32,000 nt of DNA from Nitrospinota bacterium (GCA_029881495.1 JAOUMJ010000008.1:7160-39159); one strand, 5' to 3'. Numbered from the stretch's first letter, positions 8,871 to 32,000 are shown. The notes: generated from the letters alone by a model not told the origin. Translations and numbers: made by a program.

Positions 8871-8886
8871 AACAACGTCTGTGCCA
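8871..8886 (-). promoter_or_regulatory. sigma54 (-24/-12) type promoter for fliK-flgD-flgE
   Basis: The minus strand reads TGGCACagacgTTGTT, against the consensus TGGCACG-N4-TTGCW. GG at -24 is conserved. The -12 element is GT instead of GC. It lies about 40 nt upstream of the fliK ATG. Confidence 0.6.
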
Positions 8887-9205
8887 ATTCCATAACAGGC
8901 AAAAAAACAATAAGATATCTGCTCACGTCTCTTAATACAGGCAGATGAAATGAGGAAAAAGTTGCCTCCGGGGGCAAAAAATACCGTTTCTGGCCTCCTT
9001 TCCCACTATGCCAGGGAGTTTTTGCCTACCCCACCACCTGGTCGATATTCATGCTTCTTTGGCATGAGAATTTCACTTGCTGATGTATACAGTTGTAAAG
9101 CTGGCTTTTTGACGAATTTGGCATTTTTTCGGGTGAAGGACAAGTGTGATTAGAACATGGTATCTAACGCATTGAAATATAAAGATATATATAAAAACAC
9201 AAATT

Positions 9206-9221
9206 AGGCACGTTGATTGCT
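9206..9221 (+). promoter_or_regulatory. sigma54 (-24/-12) type promoter for the flgB operon
   Basis: The plus strand reads AGGCACGttgaTTGCT, a near-perfect match to TGGCACG-N4-TTGCW. It lies about 40 nt upstream of the flgB start. Confidence 0.75.
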
Positions 9222-9256
9222 TATTAATAAGGAAGAAATGGTTTTTTATAGGAATT

Positions 9257-14947: not shown

Positions 14948-15388
14948 ATGTATAAATTCAAACTGGCTCCACTACTCAGGCACAGGAAAAGGCAGGAAGA
15001 CGAGAAGATGCGCGAGATGTCGGTGATAAACAGGAAAATGGTGATCAACACCGAGCTGTTGCATAAACTCACCGAGGGAAGGGAGAGCGAGCTGGACAAG
15101 TTCACGCAAGCGAGCGGAACGGCTCACAACGTGGCGCTACTTAGGGTTTACCAGGATTTTCTAGCGGGGAGGGACTCCGATATCCTGCACAAAAAGATGG
15201 AGTTACGCCAAGTTGGCGAACTGCTTGAAAAGAAGCGGAGCGAGCTGGCTGAATATGTAAAAAGACGACGAGTGTTGGAGATCCTGCGCGACAGGCAGGA
15301 GGAAGAGTACAACCTTGAAGCGGAGAGGCGCGAGCAGAAGGAGCTCGACGATATTTCAAACCAGCTATTTCTGCGGGAGGCATGGTGA
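14948..15388 (+). CDS. fliJ: flagellar export chaperone-like protein FliJ
   Basis: 146 aa, all-helical and charged coiled coil (FKLAPLLRHRKRQEDEKMRE...). Canonical position immediately after fliI. Confidence 0.8.
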   Translation: MYKFKLAPLLRHRKRQEDEKMREMSVINRKMVINTELLHKLTEGRESELDKFTQASGTAHNVALLRVYQDFLAGRDSDILHKKMELRQVGELLEKKRSELAEYVKRRRVLEILRDRQEEEYNLEAERREQKELDDISNQLFLREAW

Positions 15389-15915
15389 TAAAAAGATTTT
15401 TTCTGATCATACTTCTGGTGAAGGCATCTCTTGTGCTGTTTCTTCTTTTTGGAGGGGAAGATCTGCTTCCGGAAGCATCCGCACAGAATGAAGGAGCCTC
15501 TGCCCAAACTCCCCAGGAGAAACTCAAGCTGGAACTTTTCGAGGAGATGAAAAAGAAACAGGAAGAACTCGACAAGAGAGAAGAGATGTTAAACCGCAGA
15601 GAGGACAGGACCCGCGCCCTCGAGCTTGATATGAGCAAAAAAATAGACGAATTGAAAAGATTGCAGGTAAGGATAGACGACCTGATAAGGATGAGGGACG
15701 ATTTGGAGAAAACCAATGTTGCGAATCTTTCAAAAACATACTCAATGATGGCCCCAGATGAGGCCGCGGCGAGATTGAAAACTATGGATAGAGCAATTGC
15801 CCTTCAGATAGTCGGACAGATGAAGAGTAAAAATTCAGCGAGAATACTAAGCAGCCTTGACCAGGCGACCGCGACCGAATTTTCCGAACAGCTTGCGAAA
15901 AGAAGATTTGAATAG
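15382..15915 (+). CDS. YlxF/MotE-like flagellar-locus protein (N-terminal membrane anchor, coiled coil, MgtE_N-like helical domain)
   Basis: 177 aa. Hydrophobic N-terminus FFLIILLVKASLVLFLLF, a charged coiled coil, and C-terminal LSKTYSMMAPDEAAARLKTMDRAIALQIVGQMKSKNSARILSSL resembling the MgtE_N fold seen in B. subtilis YlxF and MotE. The ATG overlaps the fliJ stop and has SD GGGAGG. Confidence 0.7.
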   Translation: MVIKRFFLIILLVKASLVLFLLFGGEDLLPEASAQNEGASAQTPQEKLKLELFEEMKKKQEELDKREEMLNRREDRTRALELDMSKKIDELKRLQVRIDDLIRMRDDLEKTNVANLSKTYSMMAPDEAAARLKTMDRAIALQIVGQMKSKNSARILSSLDQATATEFSEQLAKRRFE

Positions 15916-15988: not shown

Positions 15989-16210
15989 ATGGCAACAAGC
16001 GAGGATAGTTTGGAAAAAAAGGTTGAGAGAGTGTTTTCCGACGAGGAAAACAGGAGAGTTGACGGGATTCTTTACCGGGAGCTGGATTTTGGCGGAATGA
16101 CCACCCAGTTTCTGTTGCATATCGTCTCATCAGGGGTGATTATCAGCGACAAGAATATTGAGCCCCTCATGGAGTACATGGAAAAGCACGGCCCGAAAGG
16201 AAACGCCTGA
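15989..16210 (+). CDS. hypothetical 73-aa protein (weak call)
   Basis: An ORF only. No convincing SD (aaaacatatcccATG) and no family recognised. It sits between the flagellar operon and aspS. Confidence 0.3.
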   Translation: MATSEDSLEKKVERVFSDEENRRVDGILYRELDFGGMTTQFLLHIVSSGVIISDKNIEPLMEYMEKHGPKGNA

Positions 16211-19781: not shown

Positions 19782-20150
19782 ATGGTAGTATCAGAGATCG
19801 AATATCAAATTGTTCTTCTCTTCTGCATCGAGGAATATTTCGAACCTGAAATGGAAGATGAGCTTTCCATCATTGTGCCGGATGTAATCTCTGAATATAA
19901 CGGGAGTGTTCTGGAGATGAAAGTTAACCGGGATTACCTGTATGTACACTTCAGGTCATCCCCGGATCACTCCCCTTCGGAGGTAGCGCGGGGTCTTGCC
20001 TTGCTCACTTCAGCCAGGCTTATAAACCTGCATAATGGATTGAAAGGGTACGAGACCGTTTTTAGGCCGGATTTTTGCGTTAAAACCGGGGAAAAAATGG
20101 GAGAGTATGAAATAGAAGATTTTATGGCAATTGCGAAATCGAGACTTTGA
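19782..20150 (+). CDS. small protein with IS200/IS605 TnpA (Y1 transposase)-like fold but substituted catalytic residues
   Basis: 122 aa from the ATG preceded by GAGGGGTGGAG. By-eye alignment to remembered IS200/IS608 TnpA sequences: YQIVL aligns with YHIVF/W; LEMKVNRDYLYVHFRSSPDHSPSEV..L..TSARL aligns with LE....DHIHML...PP..S.S...LKG.SSR.L; FCVKTGEKMGEYEIEDFM aligns with Y.V.TVG.....I.DYI. The HUH histidines read Y-L-Y and the catalytic Tyr reads F. Confidence 0.5.
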   Translation: MVVSEIEYQIVLLFCIEEYFEPEMEDELSIIVPDVISEYNGSVLEMKVNRDYLYVHFRSSPDHSPSEVARGLALLTSARLINLHNGLKGYETVFRPDFCVKTGEKMGEYEIEDFMAIAKSRL

Positions 20151-20806: not shown

Positions 20807-20883
20807 GCGCCCGTAGCTCAGCTGGATAGAGCATCTGACTTCGGATCAGAGGGTCGGGAGTTCGAATCTCTCCGGGCGCGCCA
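20807..20883 (+). tRNA. tRNA-Arg (anticodon TCG), encoded CCA
   Basis: Hand-folded. Acceptor gcgcccg/cgggcgc. D arm gctc-agctggata-gagc. Anticodon stem tctga/tcaga with loop ctTCGga. T arm gggag-ttcgaat-ctctc with one G-U pair. Discriminator G followed by CCA. Confidence 0.88.
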
Positions 20884-20951
20884 TTTTTCAATTTGCGTAT
20901 TTTCCCCGCCATAGATATGCCGGATAGGGAATTCGAACTTTTCATAACTTG

Positions 20952-20988: not shown

Positions 20989-21061
20989 CATGGTTTTAAA
21001 TCCGGTTAAATAGTTATAAACTCACTCCTAAGGGTCTCTTTCGTGGATTGTAGGAGTGGAA

Positions 21062-22294
21062 ATGATTAAAAAGATTCCGGTGGAACAGTTGAAGCCTGGG
21101 ATGTTCGTCCATGATTTCAACTGCGGGTGGCTTGACCATCCGTTCCTTAAAAATGCGGTTCTCATCAAAAACGACTCCATGATCAAAAAAGTCATTGAGG
21201 TAGGCATAAGGGAAGTCTATATCGACGCATCAAAAGGCCTTGATTCGGGAGAAGCGCCTCTCAAGGAGGAAGAAGACAAAAAAACAGCGGCGTCCGTAAA
21301 AAGAATAGTCGATGAATATCCGCAGGTGGAGAACCTCGTTCCTATGATGCAGGAGATAGAAAAGGCGGCGGAGATAAAGGAAGAGGCCAAAAAGGCGATC
21401 ACCGGCGTGATGGAAGACTTGCAGGCGGGCAAGGAGCTTGAAAAAGAGAAGATAGACCTTGTAGTCGAGGAGATGGTCGAATCCGTCATAAGGAACAAGC
21501 ATGCGCTGACCAGCCTCAGCCGGGTGAAAAAGAAAGACGAATATACATATATGCACTCTGTGAACGTATCGATACTGATGATATCGTTTTGCAGAACCAT
21601 GAAGATGAGCAAGTCTGATATCGCGGTTTTCGGAACCGGAGCCTTGCTGCATGACATAGGGAAGATGAAGGTCTCTCAGGCACTCCTTAACAAGCCTTCC
21701 AAGCTGACGGATGATGAGTTTGCGCAGATGAAAATGCATGCGGTATACAGCGGGGAGATACTGACGGAGACGGGCGATTTTTCTCAGAAGGCTATTGACG
21801 TCGCTTCACAGCATCACGAAAGGTTCGATGGTACCGGATACCCAAAAGGGTTGAAGGGGGACAAGATAAGTCAGGGGGGGCAGATGTCCTCGATAGTAGA
21901 TGTTTACGATGCCATCACCTCGGACCGATGCTACCATACCGGAATGGACCCTTCGGAGGCATTAAAGAAGATATTTGAGTGGAGCAAATACCACTTTGAT
22001 CCGAAACTTGTGCAGTACTACATACGGAGCGTGGGGATATATCCTGTTGGTACGCTTGTCAGGCTCGAAAGTGATTACCTGGCAGTTGTTATGCAACCGG
22101 GAGAAGAGGATTTAACGAAGCCAAAAGTGAAGATCATTTATGATGTTGACCGGGATTGGCCGGTAGAGCCGAGGGTCCTTGACCTGGCAAAACCTGCCGT
22201 TGGCGTTTCGACCCAGGACAGGATCGTTTCAACTGAATCACCGCTGAAATGGAAAATCAATCCGCTGAAATATATCGATTTTCTGAATCAATAG
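21062..22294 (+). CDS. HD-GYP domain protein (putative c-di-GMP phosphodiesterase) with DUF3391-like N-domain
   Basis: HD motif GALLHDIGK and HHERFDGTGYPKGL (GYP). N-terminal KIPVEQLKPGMFVHDFNCGWLDHPF is typical of the DUF3391 domain that precedes HD-GYP modules. ATG 21062 with SD AGGAG is preferred over GTG 21056. Confidence 0.9.
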   Translation: MIKKIPVEQLKPGMFVHDFNCGWLDHPFLKNAVLIKNDSMIKKVIEVGIREVYIDASKGLDSGEAPLKEEEDKKTAASVKRIVDEYPQVENLVPMMQEIEKAAEIKEEAKKAITGVMEDLQAGKELEKEKIDLVVEEMVESVIRNKHALTSLSRVKKKDEYTYMHSVNVSILMISFCRTMKMSKSDIAVFGTGALLHDIGKMKVSQALLNKPSKLTDDEFAQMKMHAVYSGEILTETGDFSQKAIDVASQHHERFDGTGYPKGLKGDKISQGGQMSSIVDVYDAITSDRCYHTGMDPSEALKKIFEWSKYHFDPKLVQYYIRSVGIYPVGTLVRLESDYLAVVMQPGEEDLTKPKVKIIYDVDRDWPVEPRVLDLAKPAVGVSTQDRIVSTESPLKWKINPLKYIDFLNQ

Positions 22295-22342
22295 CCTAAT
22301 CAGTTCATGCAGGTCGCATGGTAATGACTGTTTTATTACAAA

Positions 22343-22768
22343 CTAAACTGCACTGCCGGCAAGATACCGCTCAAAAGCTCTTTTGCCACGCCTTGCTCTT
22401 GCGGGATTTCCAGGGTGCTGAAACGCATAGACAACGCTGTAAATATACTTCAGCACAAAGTTCAGTATTTTGTAATACGGTATTTCCCGTAATGTTTGTC
22501 GTATATCAAGCACTATCTTCAGCGCTGGTGAGATAAAGCTAGACAAAGTCATAAGCAACACATAGTTGATAACACCCAAACTATGGGTTATTTCCATCTC
22601 ATTTGATCCCTTATCAGTTCTAACGCTCTCTTTTCCCTGAGGCCCGATTTTACTACAAATTTCTTCTGTGACAACCGGCAAATTGTCATCATGGTAGCGA
22701 GGCCCCTTTTTTGCCTCAATTCCAGAAAGATCTATTATTTCAACTTTTAACATTTCGGTTGTTTTCAT
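22343..22768 (-). CDS. orphan 141-aa protein, polar N-half, at least one predicted TM segment, basic C-tail (island gene P1)
   Basis: ATG at 22768 preceded by AGGGG. It has its own perfect sigma54 promoter about 85 nt upstream. Hydrophobic segment LGVINYVLLMTLSSFISPALKIVL. No family recognised. The 3' third is more GC-rich and Arg/Ala-rich, so the true C-terminus is uncertain. Confidence 0.5.
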   Translation of the reverse strand: MKTTEMLKVEIIDLSGIEAKKGPRYHDDNLPVVTEEICSKIGPQGKESVRTDKGSNEMEITHSLGVINYVLLMTLSSFISPALKIVLDIRQTLREIPYYKILNFVLKYIYSVVYAFQHPGNPARARRGKRAFERYLAGSAV

Positions 22769-22851
22769 AAACACCCCTATTGGTTTTAAGTATTTATATC
22801 TTCTTTGTTCCTATGATCTCTTTTCGGTATTTTCGATAATAACTAAAGGGT

Positions 22852-22867
22852 TGCAAAGTACGTGCCA
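22852..22867 (-). promoter_or_regulatory. sigma54 (-24/-12) promoter, perfect consensus, upstream of P1
   Basis: The minus strand reads TGGCACGtactTTGCA, matching TGGCACG-N4-TTGCA at every conserved position. Confidence 0.8.
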
Positions 22868-22905
22868 CAGTTGAAGACATTGTATGTCATTGATAATATA
22901 GGGCA

Positions 22906-23063
22906 ATTATTTTCAGATTCAAAAGAATGACGGTATATTCTATTTTTTCTGACTATTTTCAAATGTTTACGAAATCATTAATTAAAGGATCATGTTTATA
23001 TATTGATGCCAGTAGCCAAATATGTTGCTAGTGGTTTGAATATTAAATAAAAACCACTTTTTT
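22906..23063 (+). ncRNA. candidate small plus-strand transcript (orphan promoter to intrinsic terminator); may instead carry a 34-codon ORF at 22927..23031
   Basis: TTGAAG (22871-76), a 17-nt spacer, then TAATAT (22894-99) on the plus strand. About 130 nt later comes a hairpin (stem 23030-37 / 23051-58) followed by TTTTTT-type run (23058-63). No annotated plus-strand gene is present here. Confidence 0.25.
23030..23063 (+). terminator. intrinsic-terminator-like hairpin plus T6, oriented for the plus strand
   Basis: aGTGGTTT, a 13-nt loop, AAACCACt, then a T-run. On the minus strand (downstream of P2) the same hairpin is preceded by an A-tract and is not followed by a U-tract. Confidence 0.4.
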
Positions 23064-23076
23064 CAGCTCGGGAGCG

Positions 23077-23313
23077 CTAGTTTGCTGCGAGGTCGAACCT
23101 GTCTACTTCATGCGAAAAAGGATTGTTGATTCTGTGAATATGGTTTGCCAAAGCCGGATATTTTGCCGCTACATGCGCGATTACAACCTGTTGGCGCATG
23201 GCTTTTGCCTCCAATTCGATCTTCCTTTTGATCTCCTTTGAAGTTCCGTTCCCGCTAAGTTCGACTAGCTGAGTCAGTTTTACAAGTTCGAGAAATTCAT
23301 TTTCGTTTAGCAT
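23077..23313 (-). CDS. orphan 78-aa predicted all-helical protein (island gene P2)
   Basis: ATG at 23313 with a strong SD (AGGATGAGGTGAT). A sigma54-type promoter lies about 85 nt upstream. No family recognised. Confidence 0.55.
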   Translation of the reverse strand: MLNENEFLELVKLTQLVELSGNGTSKEIKRKIELEAKAMRQQVVIAHVAAKYPALANHIHRINNPFSHEVDRFDLAAN

Positions 23314-23395
23314 TTTATCACCTCATCCTTTTTATCGGTTATTGGCAACCGACGCATAAATTATTCTAGTTACTTCTTCTCATGCCCGTTGTAAT

Positions 23396-23411
23396 TGCAT
23401 ACACCGTACCA
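23396..23411 (-). promoter_or_regulatory. sigma54 (-24/-12) type promoter upstream of P2
   Basis: The minus strand reads TGGTACGgtgtATGCA. GG and GC are at the correct 10-nt spacing. There are two mismatches to consensus outside the core dinucleotides. Confidence 0.6.
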
Positions 23412-23587
23412 AATTTACCCAGGTAAATGCCTATAAAAAACAATATCTTACGATAGTGATTCTGAGTATCTGTTTATTTTCTTGCGGGGTATCTACAAAT
23501 GTTGATGGTTTGATGCGGTCATACAAATAATCTCGTCCGCATGGCAGATTATGATTGTCCGGCTTTATTTTTAGCGGATACCGGTAT

Positions 23588-23773
23588 TTACCCGATCTGG
23601 GTTACGCATCCTTCCCACCATCGGCAACCGATTTTTTGGCATCCTCTGTTCTGTTTGTAGCAGTCGTTATGGCCATTTAAGAGTTGGAGTTTTCTGATTT
23701 TGTCAGGATTTTTCTGGGCCCATTCAATTGTATGTCTCCAGCTATCTTGACCTTTTTCGGTAGTATTTAGCAT
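23588..23773 (-). CDS. orphan 61-aa protein with C-terminal four-cysteine cluster (island gene P3)
   Basis: ATG at 23773 with SD AGAGGTGG. The upstream GTG at 23818 would sit at the predicted transcription start. C-terminus is DCYKQNRGCQKIGCRWWEGCVTQIG (C-x6-C-x4-C-x5-C). No family recognised. Confidence 0.55.
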   Translation of the reverse strand: MLNTTEKGQDSWRHTIEWAQKNPDKIRKLQLLNGHNDCYKQNRGCQKIGCRWWEGCVTQIG

Positions 23774-23826
23774 AGCCACCTCTTTCCTATTGTGTATATC
23801 GGTTAATTTTGCTTCCACCTTTATTT

Positions 23827-23842
23827 TGCAGACTTTATGCCA
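23827..23842 (-). promoter_or_regulatory. sigma54 (-24/-12) type promoter upstream of P3
   Basis: The minus strand reads TGGCATAaagtCTGCA. GG and GC are at the correct spacing. It lies about 55 nt upstream of the ATG at 23773. Confidence 0.6.
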
Positions 23843-23908
23843 AAGATAAGCGGTTTATCATATTGATATATAAAGAGATAAATCGGCATATTTCCGGTTT
23901 AAAGGTGA

Positions 23909-23937
23909 TTTTGCACAAAATCATAACAAATGCAAAA
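23909..23937. promoter_or_regulatory. inverted repeat TTTTGCA-N15-TGCAAAA, candidate enhancer (bEBP) site for the P3 promoter
   Basis: Perfect 7-bp inverted repeat centred about 83 bp upstream of the -24 GG of the P3 promoter. This distance is typical for sigma54 activator sites. Confidence 0.35.
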
Positions 23938-23944
23938 GTAGGAT

Positions 23945-23964
23945 AAAAAACCAATTTTCATTGG
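23945..23964 (-). terminator. weak hairpin plus U6 after moaA
   Basis: The minus strand reads CCAAT-gaaa-ATTGG followed by TTTTTT, 22 nt after the moaA stop. The stem is only 5 bp. Confidence 0.35.
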
Positions 23965-23986
23965 CAATACAGGCGGGAACTGCGCG

Positions 23987-24976
23987 TTATCCGCCGATCG
24001 AGGCCATCCCTTTTCCGGTAGTAGTCATGGAGTCCGTTTCCAGTCCATGTCCGCGCGGTTTGCAGAGTATTGCTTCGCTGAATTTTTCAAGGAACCAGCT
24101 GTCCTCCATTTGTTCCCTCAGACCGTATGCCAGGTCAATCTCGCTATCTGAAAAGAGGCATGATCGAAGGCTCCCTTCCGCTGTCAGCCGCAAGCGGTTA
24201 CAGCCATCACAGAATTTCTCGGTCATCGGGGAGACGAAGCCGATCTTCCCGGTTCCACCCCCTAACTTGAAAACTTTTGCAGGGCCATTATGCTTGCCAT
24301 AATTCCCATCCGGCATAAGCTCGTATTTCTCACGGATCAATCTTTCAATATCACGATTCGGCAGCTTCTCCTTCCCGTTCCAGAGGCGGTTGTGAGCTGT
24401 CGGCATCATTTCAATAAACCTTATTTCCACCGGCAGTCTCCTTGCCAGTTCAGCGAATGCGGGGATCTCGTCATCGTTGAATCCTTTTATGCCGACGACA
24501 TTGATCTTTACCGGAAAGATATCTTCTTCGCAGATCTTTTCTATTGAGTCGAGCACCTTTCCTAGAACATCCGAGCCCGAAAGCTCCTTCATCCGGTCTG
24601 TTTTCAGGGTATCAAGTGAAATATTAATCCTGTCGAGACCGGCTCTTTTAAGTTCGCCGGCCATTTTCCCCAGGAGTACGCCGTTCGTAGTAAGCGTTAC
24701 CTCCTCAATACCGCTTATATTTTTGATATCCCTTACCAAAGTGACGATCCCCTTGCGGATAAGGGGTTCACCGCCGGTAAGGCGGATTTTCCTTACACCG
24801 GCGCCACTGAAAATTCTTATAAGCCGGGTGATTTCCCTTATCGTAAGGATGTCCCCCTGAGGGTAGATGTTCTGCCCGGACGGCATGCAATAGGCACATT
24901 TCAGGTTGCACCGGGGGGTCACCGATACGCGCAGATATGACACGCTTCTCCCGTATTGATCCTTCTGCTCATTCAT
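23987..24976 (-). CDS. moaA: GTP 3',8-cyclase MoaA (radical SAM, molybdenum cofactor biosynthesis)
   Basis: 329 aa. YLRVSVTPRCNLKCAYCMP (CxxxCxxC). C-terminal auxiliary cluster motif FCDGCNRLRLTAEGSLRSCLF. Terminal GG. Same length and layout as E. coli MoaA. Confidence 0.93.
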   Translation of the reverse strand: MNEQKDQYGRSVSYLRVSVTPRCNLKCAYCMPSGQNIYPQGDILTIREITRLIRIFSGAGVRKIRLTGGEPLIRKGIVTLVRDIKNISGIEEVTLTTNGVLLGKMAGELKRAGLDRINISLDTLKTDRMKELSGSDVLGKVLDSIEKICEEDIFPVKINVVGIKGFNDDEIPAFAELARRLPVEIRFIEMMPTAHNRLWNGKEKLPNRDIERLIREKYELMPDGNYGKHNGPAKVFKLGGGTGKIGFVSPMTEKFCDGCNRLRLTAEGSLRSCLFSDSEIDLAYGLREQMEDSWFLEKFSEAILCKPRGHGLETDSMTTTGKGMASIGG

Positions 24977-27950: not shown

Positions 27951-28424
27951 ATGAGCAAGGAATTCACACACCTGAGCGAAAAGGGGGAGGCAAGGATGGT
28001 AGACATCTCCGGCAAGACTGAAACCTCACGCCGGGCAGTTGCTTCGTCCTTCGTAAAGATGAGCGCCGATACTCTGAACGCCATAAGGGATGAGAAGTTG
28101 CCGAAAGGGGATGTATTTGCCGCCGCACGGATAGCCGGGATAATGGGGGCGAAGCGCGTGGCGGAGCTAATTCCCCTTTGCCATCCGCTGAACATCGATC
28201 ATTGCGAAATAGTGTTTGAGATGAAGGAGGGCGGAATAGCTGTGCGCTCGGAGGTGAAGGTGAGGGGGACCACCGGCGCGGAGATGGAAGCAATAACGGC
28301 TGTATCAATCGCCGCCCTTACAATTTACGATATGTGCAAGTCGATGGAGAAGGGGATAGTGATAACCGATACGATGCTCCTTGAAAAGGATGGCGGGAAG
28401 TCCGGCAGTTTCAGGCGCAAATAG
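27951..28424 (+). CDS. moaC: cyclic pyranopterin monophosphate synthase MoaC
   Basis: 157 aa. Motifs THLSEKGEARMVDISGKTETSRRAVA, IPLCHPL, TGAEMEAITAVSIAALTIYDMCK. Confidence 0.94.
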   Translation: MSKEFTHLSEKGEARMVDISGKTETSRRAVASSFVKMSADTLNAIRDEKLPKGDVFAAARIAGIMGAKRVAELIPLCHPLNIDHCEIVFEMKEGGIAVRSEVKVRGTTGAEMEAITAVSIAALTIYDMCKSMEKGIVITDTMLLEKDGGKSGSFRRK

Positions 28425-28427
28425 CGG

Positions 28428-28919
28428 ATGATAAGGACAGCCATCCTTGTGGTCTCTGATACGAGAGGCGATAAGGCTTCCAATAAACCTGATCTCTGCA
28501 TCCCGGCGATTGCCGGGTTTCTGAATGGGAAAGATTTCGAGGTAGTCGCCTCGAAGATCGTGAAGGACGAGATAGGCGAGATCCAGCAGGCGATAAGGGA
28601 TTGGGTCGATGATAGATCGATCGACCTTGTTCTCACCTCCGGCGGTACCGGTGTTTCGCCGCGCGATGTTACCCCCGAAGCGACCAGGCCGCTCCTCACA
28701 AAGGAACTCCCTGGAGTTGCGGAGGCGATGCGCGCATATTCATTGAAGAAGACCGTCAGGGCGGTGCTCTCAAGGGCCGTTGCGGGACTTGCAGGGGATA
28801 CGCTTGTAGTGAACCTCCCCGGCTCTCCGAAAGGGGCGGTGGAAAATCTCGAAGCGGTCTTTGAATCATTCGCGCACATCATTGAGAAAGGGCGGGGGGA
28901 CAACAGCGACTGCGCATGA
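28428..28919 (+). CDS. moaB: MoaB/MogA-family molybdopterin adenylyltransferase-like protein
   Basis: 163 aa MoCF_biosynth domain. Motifs AILVVSDTR, LVLTSGGTGVSPRDVTPEAT, VVNLPGSPKG. Confidence 0.88.
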   Translation: MIRTAILVVSDTRGDKASNKPDLCIPAIAGFLNGKDFEVVASKIVKDEIGEIQQAIRDWVDDRSIDLVLTSGGTGVSPRDVTPEATRPLLTKELPGVAEAMRAYSLKKTVRAVLSRAVAGLAGDTLVVNLPGSPKGAVENLEAVFESFAHIIEKGRGDNSDCA

Positions 28920-30388: not shown

Positions 30389-30991
30389 ATGATCCGCGAT
30401 CTGATATTGAAAAGCCGTTCCTATCGCCGGTTCCATCAGGAGGTGGCGGTTGGAGAGTCGACGCTTAGAGAGCTTGTCGATCTTGCGCGTCTGTCGCCTT
30501 CCGCCGCGAATAAACAGCCGCTCAAGTATGTTCTATCGCATGAGGGGGAGAAGAACGCGAAAATATTTCCGCATCTCGCATGGGCGGGGTATTTGAAGGA
30601 TTGGCCCGGCCCTGAGGAGGGGGAGAGGCCGTCCGCGTATATCATTATCCTGCTCGATACGAGGATAAGTAAAAAGGTCGATTGCGATCATGGTATTGCG
30701 GCGCAGTCGATCATGCTGGGGGCCGTTGAAAAAGGATTTGGCGGGACGATAATTTCGTCCGTGAAGAGAGAGGAACTTTCCAAATTGTTGGGGCTGCCGG
30801 ATTATCTGGAGATCCTTCTTGTCCTCGCGATCGGCAAGCCGAAGGAGGAGGTAGTTATAGAGGAGAGCGGCGAGCTTGGCCCCGACGGCGACATAAAATA
30901 TTGGCGCGACGAAAACCAAACCCACCATATCCCCAAACGCCCTCTGGATGAGGTTTTATTTAACGATCAACTAAAAAGTTCGAGTTATTAA
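30389..30991 (+). CDS. nitroreductase family protein
   Basis: 200 aa. SRSYRRFHQE..LRELVDLARLSPSAANKQPLKYVL is the typical nitroreductase N-terminal FMN-binding motif. Confidence 0.85.
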   Translation: MIRDLILKSRSYRRFHQEVAVGESTLRELVDLARLSPSAANKQPLKYVLSHEGEKNAKIFPHLAWAGYLKDWPGPEEGERPSAYIIILLDTRISKKVDCDHGIAAQSIMLGAVEKGFGGTIISSVKREELSKLLGLPDYLEILLVLAIGKPKEEVVIEESGELGPDGDIKYWRDENQTHHIPKRPLDEVLFNDQLKSSSY

Positions 30992-31059
30992 ATTAATCCT
31001 CTGCTGTCCATAGATGAATAGTTTGCTCCATCCTTGCCATTGCTTTCGGTTTACAAAAA

Positions 31060-32000
31060 TCAGGTACCCGTTGCGGGTGGTTCAATGCTTTCGGTTTTCT
31101 TGTGCAATTTTTCGTTTAAAGTAAATTCGGCAATTTGTTTTTTTAGATTCTCAATTGTCTCTTGTTTAAGTTTTAATTCATCCTCCGCTTTCTCCGCTTT
31201 CTTTTCAATATCATAAAGCTGGTCTTTTACTTTTTTAAGCTCGGTGTTGGCTTCTGAAAGTTGGTTTTTAAATATTTCCGCGGCATCAGTAGCTTCTTTG
31301 ATTTTTAAGTCTTTTTCCGATAATGCCGCTTTCAAGTCGTTGGCTAGATTCTTGCTATTAGAAATGTTTTTGGCAAGTTCATCAATGTCTTTTTGTTTTG
31401 CTTTGTTCTTTTCAAATAACTCTTCAACCTGTTTGTTTTTAGCTTCGATTAGTTTATTGTTTTCTCTTTTATCTTTTTCGAGTTCGGCCACCTGTTGTGC
31501 GTATTGGTCTTTTGTTTGTTCAGCTATTCTAATTTTCTCTTCAATCAGCTTTCTGGCATTAGCATCTTTTTTTGAATTGGTATCCAGTTGTTCAAGTTCT
31601 CTTTTTAGGGCATGAATATTCTCATCGGACTTTTGTTTGTTTTTTTCTAGCTCAGAGATTGTTTTGGTTTTTTGGGCGTTTTCTTCCTCAAGGTTGATAA
31701 TGCCCAAATGTTTATAATTTTTCTCGATTTCATCGAATTTCAAAGAAGCTTCCCTGAAATTCAGATGAAAAAGCGGCTCATTTTCATTTACCATTTTTGC
31801 GAATAGGCCGGCCTTTAAAACGCCGCTGGTAGTTTTGAAATCCGAACTGTTTGTTAGTGTCAAAACGTCAGTCATGACTTTTGCTTGCAACTTTTTTAGT
31901 TCAATGTCGTTAATAGCATTTTGGACCGTGCATGGGCCGAAAAGCGCAGTTATGGCAACAGCCATGAATGAAGGTTTTAATATTGAATCAATTATTCTGT
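31060..32000 (-). CDS. coiled-coil protein, probable lipoprotein; N-terminus may lie beyond the right window edge
   Basis: The frame remains open to nt 32000 upstream of the first in-window Met. ..SILKPSFMAVAITALFGPC resembles a signal peptide ending in a lipobox-like FGPC. This is followed by about 200 aa of heptad-rich Lys/Glu coiled coil. The gene is strongly AT-rich. Confidence 0.6.
   Translation of the reverse strand, partial: RIIDSILKPSFMAVAITALFGPCTVQNAINDIELKKLQAKVMTDVLTLTNSSDFKTTSGVLKAGLFAKMVNENEPLFHLNFREASLKFDEIEKNYKHLGIINLEEENAQKTKTISELEKNKQKSDENIHALKRELEQLDTNSKKDANARKLIEEKIRIAEQTKDQYAQQVAELEKDKRENNKLIEAKNKQVEELFEKNKAKQKDIDELAKNISNSKNLANDLKAALSEKDLKIKEATDAAEIFKNQLSEANTELKKVKDQLYDIEKKAEKAEDELKLKQETIENLKKQIAEFTLNEKLHKKTESIEPPATGT

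Follow-up and report, generated by a model that had tools for sequence, protein, structure and literature searches.

An AT-rich spacer of a Nitrospinota genome with three tandem sigma-54-type promoters and small orphan genes

The 32,000-nucleotide (nt) stretch of DNA from the metagenome-assembled genome of a Nitrospinota bacterium (GCA_029881495.1, JAOUMJ010000008.1:7160-39159) considered here, hereafter the window, contains an AT-rich spacer at positions 22295-23986, between the gene of an HD-GYP-type phosphodiesterase and moaA, which is distinguished by its base composition (38.4% G+C, against 49.7% in the upstream and 50.0% in the downstream flank). Three sigma-54-type promoters are located in this island in tandem, all in the same orientation and far beyond chance expectation. 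In our opinion, the spacer is probably an array in which three sigma-54-dependent transcription units follow one another in the same orientation. Two of the units contain real orphan genes for proteins of 141 and 78 amino acids (aa), and the third contains an open reading frame (ORF) of 61 codons, whose product may be a protein or an RNA.

Three promoter boxes and their conservation

The three -24/-12 boxes are found on the minus strand with GG and GC exactly 10 nt apart, as they were read in the original prediction, which was made from the sequence alone. P1 (TGGCACGTACTTTGCA, 22852-22867) represents a perfect consensus, has the highest matrix score of the window (19.0 bits, rank 1) and stands with its -12 C 84 nt from the ATG of the 141-aa gene. 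The corresponding distance is 83 nt for P2 (TGGTACGGTGTATGCA, 23396-23411; 14.2 bits, rank 4), which precedes the 78-aa gene, and 54 nt for P3 (TGGCATAAAGTCTGCA, 23827-23842; 15.5 bits, rank 2), which precedes the 61-codon ORF. This spacing of 54-84 nt is plausible, and each ATG is situated behind a GAGGTG or GGGGTG Shine-Dalgarno sequence. Compared with the extended consensus TGGCAC-N5-TTGCW, P1, P2 and P3 have zero, two and three mismatches, respectively, and TGG..A and TGC are intact in all of them.

The scores come from a scan with a sigma-54 matrix, an approximation built from the published consensus; such a scan had been suggested together with the original prediction, and it placed the island sites first, second and fourth among ~64,000 positions. 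Four sites reached at least 14 bits versus 0.34 expected, the third in rank being the flagellar rod promoter at 9206. Three of the four top scores fall within 1 kilobase (kb), on one strand, and each is sensibly spaced from a ribosome-binding site and an ATG. The pattern TGGYAYN6TGCW, fitted to the three sites after they had been seen, has exactly these 3 matches on both strands of the 32 kb versus 0.20 expected, and 3 matches were reached in 0 of 100 shuffles. Two boxes of flagellar operons served as comparators, namely the sigma-54-type box of the rod operon (flgB and the genes after it; AGGCACGTTGATTGCT, 9206-9221, plus strand, 15.1 bits) and a weaker sigma-54-like box before fliK-flgD-flgE, the hook operon (TGGCACAGACGTTGTT, 8871-8886, minus strand), which has a perfect TGGCAC but TTGT for TTGC at -12. 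Since sigma-54-type boxes stand at both the rod and the hook operons, the organism very probably uses sigma-54.

Relatives of the array were searched for by exact-protein look-up and homology search in 5.8 billion clustered proteins and 1.84 billion representatives. One relative, Logan contig L001, is identical, and L002 and the JGI fragments L003 and L027 have ~95% DNA identity and the same order of moaA, the 61-codon ORF, the 78-aa gene, the 141-aa gene and the HD-GYP gene. A more diverged relative, lineage B, consists of L004, with a homologue of the 78-aa protein (78% identical), and L025, with a 147-aa homologue of the 141-aa protein (50% identical) by the HD-GYP gene. These two were merged through a 111-nt identical overlap into one 9.2-kb contig, L004 ending 164 nt upstream of its 78-aa gene. 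The proteins of adjacent genes in lineage B show 77-91% identity to their counterparts in the window (61% in the case of a transposase), and synonymous sites are saturated. No further homologues of the 78-aa or 141-aa proteins were found in either protein collection. A comparison of gene order, also suggested earlier as a check, showed that the 141-aa and 78-aa genes keep their place between the HD-GYP gene and the moaA side in the relatives. The contigs L025 and L028 both originate from sample ERZ27296367, where the window lineage and lineage B (~85% aa identity) thus coexist in one metagenome.

P1 and P2 are conserved together with their genes in the diverged relative. Their counterparts in lineage B are TGGCATGAACATTGCA for P1, which is the top matrix hit of the 9.2-kb contig, and TGGTATGAAGTATGCT for P2; both together are the two best hits of this contig in a scan that needs no alignment. 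The boxes changed only at degenerate positions (Y, spacer and W), and the surrounding upstream non-coding DNA has largely diverged. Some blocks of the leaders are also kept in lineage B, namely CTTTAGTnATTAT and CCGAAAAG after P1 and TAACCGATAAAA before the Shine-Dalgarno sequence of the 78-aa gene. The P3 region is ~99% identical to L002 and L027, with zero changes in the box and one change on each side of it; no diverged relative covers P3.

Another explanation is that the three boxes occur by chance or bind sigma-54 without productive transcription, and that the small genes are transcribed with the help of another sigma factor. Pairs of sigma-70-like hexamers are indeed somewhat enriched in the island (11 versus 5.7 +/- 2.4), and the consensus with 3 mismatches allowed shows no enrichment in the window (31 versus 39). 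Widespread binding of sigma-54 outside promoters, with many intragenic sites, is reported for Escherichia coli (PMC4591121). This explanation has to account for the 3 matches to the strict pattern where 0.2 were expected, for the clustering of three of the four best matrix scores on one strand of 1 kb at sensible distances from genes, and for the preservation of P1 and P2 in lineage B amid scrambled neighbouring non-coding DNA, and we consider it very improbable.

The short motif ACCGA(T/A)A was observed in all three leaders, on the minus strand at about 23798-23802, 22823-22827 and 23335-23339. At P1 as well as at P3 it stands exactly at +39, counted from the box's first base, and lineage B retains CCGAAAAG at this position. 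The chance of such a coincident position is ~0.05 by hand estimate, which is not significant when taken alone.

The genes behind the boxes

Both the 141-aa and the 78-aa ORF represent real genes of full length, orphans restricted to this clade. All three minus-strand ORFs occupy the places given to them in the original prediction, i.e., 22343-22768 (141 aa), 23077-23313 (78 aa) and 23588-23773 (61 aa), and, as was also predicted, they cannot be assigned to any family (zero matches in Pfam, NCBIfam, PHROG and PADLOC). There is no paralogy among them, and the 141-aa and 78-aa proteins have no relatives among protein families, solved structures, phages and plasmids. The purifying selection, the coding-type codons and the preserved start, stop and length indicate that these two ORFs are not spurious. 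Decay from larger genes, which had been mentioned as a finding that would speak against the original prediction, does not apply to them, since both are full-length and under purifying selection.

The 78-aa gene (OEY64_05090, MDH5542322.1; 23077-23313, minus strand) follows P2 and has the Shine-Dalgarno sequence GAGGTG. Its omega is 0.10 versus L002, the nonsynonymous and synonymous differences versus lineage B are pN 0.145 and pS 0.95, and its codon-frame score amounts to +36.1 bits. The orthologues are 78, 78 and 78 aa long, with start and stop preserved. An AlphaFold2 model, with a mean predicted local distance difference test score (pLDDT) of 77.5, contains helices at residues 4-19, 25-51, 53-63 and 68-77, and the product is predicted to be a soluble four-helix protein with the invariant C-terminal segment IAHVAAKYPALANHIHRINNPFS. 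When the model was compared with the PDB by Foldseek, no match better than E = 3 was obtained; the flagellar entry 1vh6, at E = 5.7 and a probability of 0.03, is noise.

The 141-aa gene (OEY64_05085; 22343-22768, minus strand) follows P1 and has the Shine-Dalgarno sequence GGGGTG. For this gene, omega is 0.27 versus L002, pN and pS are 0.30 and 0.78 versus lineage B, and the codon-frame score is +34.9 bits. Only two relatives of the protein exist among billions of proteins, with 88% and 50% identity; the orthologues have lengths of 141, 141 and 147 aa, start and stop being preserved. The protein evolves fast, as follows from its 50% identity in lineage B, where the neighbours have ~85%. Its N-terminal 60 residues are variable and predicted to be disordered except for the conserved motif RYHDDNLPV. 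The conserved C-terminal part has three helices and, by hydropathy, a hydrophobic segment at residues 69-87, which is probably a membrane segment. The AlphaFold2 model of this protein (pLDDT 54) was too poor for a fold search.

The 61-codon ORF (23588-23773, minus strand) was taken for the third gene in the original prediction, and in this respect the prediction found no support, because the codon use of the ORF is non-coding-like and it is predicted in no assembly. The ORF encodes four Cys residues (38, 45, 50 and 56) and has a strong GAGGTG Shine-Dalgarno sequence (AGAGGTGG) 4 nt from its ATG, as do the two proven genes. It is uncalled in five assemblies (NCBI, ENA, JGI and Logan), absent from a 15-billion-protein collection and has no homologue. 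The consecutive accessions of the 78-aa protein (MDH5542322.1) and of moaA (MDH5542323.1) in the NCBI entries also mean that there is no annotated gene between them. With a strong promoter and a ribosome-binding site but no called gene, the P3 unit is a probable annotation gap.

As to the product of P3, the chances of a protein and of an RNA seem roughly even. A further proposal is that the P3 unit is not a protein gene but gives a sigma-54-dependent non-coding or dual-function RNA, in which the 61-codon ORF is fortuitous. The codon-frame score of -10.5 bits and the flat GC1/GC2/GC3 values of 0.44/0.41/0.46, which resemble those of spurious control ORFs, agree with this proposal, although 61 codons of unusual composition give this test little power. 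By hand estimate, 1.7 kb of AT-rich DNA should contain about one ORF this long by chance, and no protein shares three 5-residue words with the putative 61-aa product. The ORF has 0 substitutions in 186 nt versus L002 and L027, the only relatives covering it, and belongs to a 350-nt run (23476-23825), identical in all three close relatives, which starts at the -12 box and ends 112 nt after the stop codon, without a synonymous change, beside ORFs with pS of 0.18-0.26. Such identity could reflect constraint at the nucleotide level or a recombination mosaic, and the mosaic explains it equally well, identical runs of this length occurring also in ordinary genes. The strong Shine-Dalgarno sequence, shared with both proven genes, speaks against an RNA without a coding function, and the searches for RNA features speak in the same sense. 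The folding of the P3 RNA does not surpass that of shuffled sequence (z = -0.53), only two tRNAs reach the gathering score of Rfam 15 in the window, with nothing credible in the island at E <= 5, and when compared with the regions around the translation starts of 18 genes of the window, the P3 RNA pairs no better than shuffled RNA does. On balance, this proposal is tentative and rather doubtful. The Cys-rich ORF does not resemble a precursor of ribosomally synthesised and post-translationally modified peptides (RiPP) either, since its neighbour is a standard MoaA with Mob_synth_C and it matches no precursor family.

The mosaic just mentioned is a property of the whole comparison with L002, in which the divergence from the window varies strongly, from 0 to 18 differences per 100 nt. 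The longest L002-identical run, 515 nt (27969-28483), lies inside ordinary genes of molybdenum cofactor (Moco) biosynthesis, and another one in the island extends over synonymous sites of the 141-aa gene. Mosaic divergence of this kind between ~95%-identical lineages suggests frequent recombination in the population. The near-identity of non-coding DNA in the island (1-3% divergence versus 8% in ORFs) was considered as a trace of selection, and this interpretation was rejected.

Regulatory elements and a possible flagellar connection

The units were described as monocistronic in the original prediction. This could not be substantiated, because there is no convincing terminator between the units; a consensus scan of the minus strand found none, and only weak AU-rich hairpins are present. 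One of them, the terminator-like hairpin GCCAAU-GAAA-AUUGGU followed by U6AU (23943-23965, minus strand; 22-44 nt past the moaA stop), has just 2 G-C pairs and hence was missed by the scan. Another hairpin, AGUGGUUU-N13-AAACCACU, is situated past the stop of the 78-aa gene (23030-23058, minus strand) and has a fold z-score of -2.96.

According to the literature, sites of sigma-54 activators are found upstream, at ~100-150 base pairs (bp) from the promoter, and integration host factor (IHF) often aids DNA looping (PMC7057263). A perfect palindrome, TGATTTTG-TG-CAAAATCA (23906-23923), located 64-81 nt upstream of the P3 box, may be such an activator site. About 0.03 palindromes of this kind are expected per region (hand-calculated), and there is no counterpart at P1 or P2. 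The palindrome is nested in an outer dyad, TTTTGCA-N15-TGCAAAA (23909-23937), within 64-95 nt upstream of the P3 box, and together they have the geometry of a candidate activator-binding site. The word CATTTG, ~90-98 nt upstream of all three boxes, was also considered and was dropped because it is not kept in lineage B.

Another element is a T-tract motif, T[GT]GTTTTT(T)AT, in front of which an A-run is often found. It has 4 copies in the window versus 0.31 expected, only beside sigma-54-type boxes and each in the sense orientation of a sigma-54 unit, three in the island and one in the flgB leader. The copy TTGTTTTTTAT (23433-23443, minus strand) lies 22-32 nt upstream of the P2 box, and lineage B retains it at an equal distance (L004 3-12). 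The copy TGGTTTTTAT (23047-23056, minus strand) is included in the hairpin after the 78-aa stop, ~180 nt upstream of P1, and the copy at P3 (23943-23953, minus strand) coincides with the U-tract of the moaA-side hairpin. The fourth copy, TGGTTTTTTAT (9239-9249, plus strand), belongs to the leader of flgB (rod operon), and a relaxed copy, TTGTTTTTTTG (8901-8911, minus strand), precedes the fliK box by 25 nt, counted between their first bases. No copies of the motif were found in 9 kb of additional flank. Its role could be that of an enhancer, of an intrinsic bend in the DNA or of a terminator tail.

These copies bear on the suggestion, made in the original prediction, of a link with flagella or cyclic di-GMP (c-di-GMP), of which one weak lead is left, namely the T-tract motif shared with the flagellar boxes; a match to any flagellar family is lacking. 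In a fuller form, the array would be a part of the flagellar/c-di-GMP sigma-54 hierarchy and share its activator with the rod and hook operons, and its products would be accessory factors of motility. This concerns the functional assignment only and is compatible with the anatomy of three units. In a de novo search for shared words over P1-P3, flgB and fliK, words of the type ATTGTTTTTTAT, common to these five sigma-54 regions, beat all 40 shuffles at lengths 10, 11 and 12, and in a repeat search over the whole window the flgB leader and the region upstream of P2 matched at 22 of 25 nt. The excess of the T-tract pattern, its constant strand and the preservation of the P2 copy in lineage B are in line with the proposal, as is the position of the array beside the HD-GYP gene and 7 kb from fliJ.

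The motif, at the same time, is mostly a T6 run, of which there are 40 in the window, and mononucleotide shuffles underestimate such runs; moreover, the pattern was defined after the sites had been seen. The distances from the first box base to the first motif base are scattered (-189, -111, -32 and +33), and two copies just past stop codons could be terminator tails. Scattered positions are not without precedent among flagellar activators. FleQ, to judge from the title of a 2002 work by Jyot et al., is said to be a flagellar activator with variably placed sites. The sites of the flagellar activator DVU1063 occupy variable positions, including those downstream of the promoter (PMC4641369), and this counts in favour of the proposal. 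The three proteins match no flagellar family, neither the ORFs nor their orthologues giving a Pfam or NCBIfam hit, and the HD-GYP gene is convergent with the array and not co-transcribed with it. Taken together, membership of the array in the flagellar hierarchy is possible but doubtful. An even more specific variant, a clade-specific branch of the Nitrospinota flagellar/c-di-GMP sigma-54 hierarchy, fired through the T-tracts in common with the rod and hook promoters and with P3 giving a regulatory or dual-function RNA constrained at every nucleotide instead of an ordinary protein, seems improbable.

As to the probable array of three sigma-54-dependent units, the boxes with their statistics and conservation and the coding status of two genes are shown, and we infer its dependence on sigma-54 and an activator, its induction and its function. 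Based on the established biology of sigma-54, the sigma-54 polymerase would bind each GG-N10-GC box as a silent closed complex, and an AAA+ enhancer-binding activator, together with bending of the AT-rich upstream DNA, would lead to ATP-driven remodelling of this complex. Because a closed complex is silent without an activator, the genes would be off by default and switched on, together or singly, by a specific signal. The P2 unit would then give the soluble 78-aa four-helix protein, and the P1 unit the 141-aa protein with its disordered N-terminal half and hydrophobic helical C-terminal part, probably in the membrane. The P3 unit would produce a transcript of ~340-380 nt with the 61-codon ORF behind its strong ribosome-binding site. 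By analogy, our best guess is that the products may be induced by a signal and serve the cell envelope or the flagellar apparatus as accessory or stress proteins.

Several results weigh against this reading. A dedicated enhancer-binding protein, assumed in the original prediction, found no support, since there is no common upstream site above chance and no activator gene nearby. In particular, no word shared by the upstream regions of P1-P3 beats shuffles, and neither rpoN nor an activator gene is present in the 32-kb window, in 0.8 kb beyond its 3' end and in 8 kb beyond its 5' end, the source contig of the window being ERZ27296367:k141_1236879 (189 kb). The codon-frame score and the lack of substitutions of the 61-codon ORF, given above, have to be added. 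As identical runs cross synonymous sites and also occur elsewhere, a recombination mosaic fits, and the identity of the non-coding DNA in the island is unreadable as selection. The proposed function is based on analogy, no family, fold or context supporting it.

Neighbourhood, origin and significance

The window begins with nuoL, nuoM, nuoN and tRNA-Leu, and the 8 kb beyond its 5' end is the nuo operon. Then fliK-flgD-flgE follow on the minus strand, divergent from flgB-flgC-fliF-fliG-fliH-fliI-fliJ. Two unknown genes, aspS, gltX, an IS200/RAYT-type gene, a bactofilin gene and tRNA-Arg are located past fliJ, and after them the HD-GYP gene (plus strand), the island and moaA (minus strand). The HD-GYP-type gene (21056-22294, plus strand; Pfam DUF3391 and HD_5) is convergent with the 141-aa gene, and moaA (23987-24976, minus strand; Pfam Radical_SAM and Mob_synth_C) has the same orientation as the array, upstream of which it lies; moaA is divergent from moaD-moaE-moeA-mobAB-moaC-moaB. 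The G+C counts per 60-nt line given in the original prediction (14, 26 and 33) were all exact on recount. The non-coding gaps in the island are 308, 274 and 213 nt, the last one being ~168 nt only with a GTG at 23818 as the start.

The two genes between fliJ and aspS encode 176 aa (~15385-15912, plus strand) and 66 aa (~16010-16207, plus strand). Neither of these conserved genes has a recorded Pfam hit; their identities in lineage B are 86% and 80%, and they may encode parts of the flagellum that have not yet been characterised. A second AT-rich stretch, 30900-32000 (34-39% G+C), is coding and corresponds to a gene at ~31060-32091 (minus strand, 343 aa, no Pfam hit on record); a sigma-54-like hit at 31341 on the plus strand is antisense inside this gene and is probably spurious. 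The 141-aa and HD-GYP genes converge, and the distance between their stops (22295-22342) is highly variable, being 48 nt here, 112 nt in L002, due to a 64-nt indel, and ~180 nt in lineage B.

The original prediction left open a horizontal acquisition of the island, and such an origin is disfavoured, because the island has the same place in a relative with ~85% aa identity and shows no mobility genes, repeats or mobile relatives. An accessory module of this kind could be, for example, a remnant of a phage or plasmid or a defence system. Its atypical composition (38% G+C, with third-position G+C of 0.39-0.47 versus 0.605 in core genes) and the orphan status of its proteins could be explained in this way; low G+C, on the other hand, is also expected of promoter-dense non-coding DNA and of young genes. 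The island is absent downstream of moaA in L005, the only more distant Nitrospinota genome found (through moaA, 59% identity), in which a convergent glycosyltransferase gene directly follows moaA. As L005 has no HD-GYP neighbourhood, it is uninformative on insertion, and its missing island says little.

A tRNA-Arg gene and an IS200/RAYT-type transposase gene at a distance of 1.4-2.5 kb might also be regarded as signs of mobility. The tRNA gene is 1.4 kb off, beyond the HD-GYP gene, and no integrase, transposase or flanking direct repeats were detected in or around 22295-23986. Zero matches were obtained in PHROGs, PADLOC, IMG/VR and PLSDB. Instead of a patchy presence, the three related lineages found (A, A' and B) all have the island at an identical position and with an identical order, across saturated synonymous divergence. 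Horizontal acquisition is thus quite improbable, and the array, which is no recent mobile insertion, was judged to have been inherited vertically since before the split of the two lineages, probably at the genus level by their ~85% aa identity.

Some observations concern the surroundings of these two genes. The Y1 transposase gene of the IS200/RAYT type (19782-20147, plus strand) occupies the gap between gltX and the bactofilin gene, and its position is conserved in all lineages. The transposase is 61% identical to its lineage B counterpart, against 77-91% for its neighbours, and no repeats similar to repetitive extragenic palindromic (REP) elements were seen in the window. The tRNA-Arg(TCG) gene is situated just upstream of the HD-GYP gene (20807-20883; 20886-20951). 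L002 has ~260 extra bases there, including a called 53-aa ORF, so that the place by the tRNA is an indel hotspot.

Several known systems resemble the array, the closest being stand-alone sigma-54 genes for small proteins, such as pspG, and the single hypothetical genes of flagellar sigma-54 regulons; its mode of action would be that of any sigma-54 unit (PMC7057263). Functions related to the cell exterior and to flagella prevail in sigma-54 regulons (PMC3162934), which also include single hypothetical genes (PMC4641369). In the PspF regulon of E. coli, pspG, encoding a small inner-membrane protein, has its own sigma-54 promoter and is co-regulated with pspABCDE (PMC2763126). The island shares with this regulon a stand-alone sigma-54 promoter for each small gene, small helical and membrane proteins and, as far as can be supposed, silence by default, with induction by stress in the E. 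coli case. It differs in that three promoters stand in tandem at one locus instead of a distant satellite gene, and there is no PspF-like activator or PspA nearby. Accordingly, the three ORFs and their orthologues gave no Pfam or NCBIfam hit at E <= 1 to members of the phage shock protein (Psp) system (PspA/B/C/D/G).

The location near a flagellar cluster and beside a gene of the c-di-GMP phosphodiesterase type is reminiscent of flagellar sigma-54 regulons, such as those of FleQ/FlrA and of DVU1063 from Desulfovibrio vulgaris (PMC4641369), and the sites of a DVU1063-type activator, upstream or downstream of the promoter, match the scattered T-tract motif. The differences from these regulons are that the island proteins belong to no flagellar family and that the shared motif is weak and dominated by T-runs. 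If P3 is non-coding, a comparison with the Qrr system becomes relevant. The Qrr small RNAs of Vibrio are several short transcripts, each driven by sigma-54 and LuxO, and the island similarly consists of several short units with their own sigma-54 promoters. Unlike Qrr, 2 of the 3 island units encode proteins, and P3 has no Rfam match, conserved structure or target pairing.

Like other prokaryotic orphan genes, those of the island are short, low in G+C and without homologues beyond a narrow clade, the 141-aa gene evolving fast. Unlike most orphans, the 78-aa and 141-aa genes combine purifying selection with conserved specialised promoters, which is stronger evidence of function. The proteins are new, and the kind of regulation is already known. 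Nothing is overturned by these data, as single hypothetical genes were already known in sigma-54 regulons.

To our knowledge, almost nothing is known about regulation in Nitrospinota, an uncultured phylum of marine and sediment bacteria, and essentially no literature was found on sigma-54 in Nitrospina or Nitrospinota. Promoters of the sigma-54 type are recognisable from sequence alone and silent without a dedicated activator; therefore, they mark genes that are deployed on a specific signal only. That three such promoters precede very small genes in a row suggests that Nitrospinota have a set of small proteins under the control of a signal, and the 141-aa and 78-aa genes, which are under purifying selection and have conserved specialised promoters, represent a clean example of demonstrably functional orphan genes.

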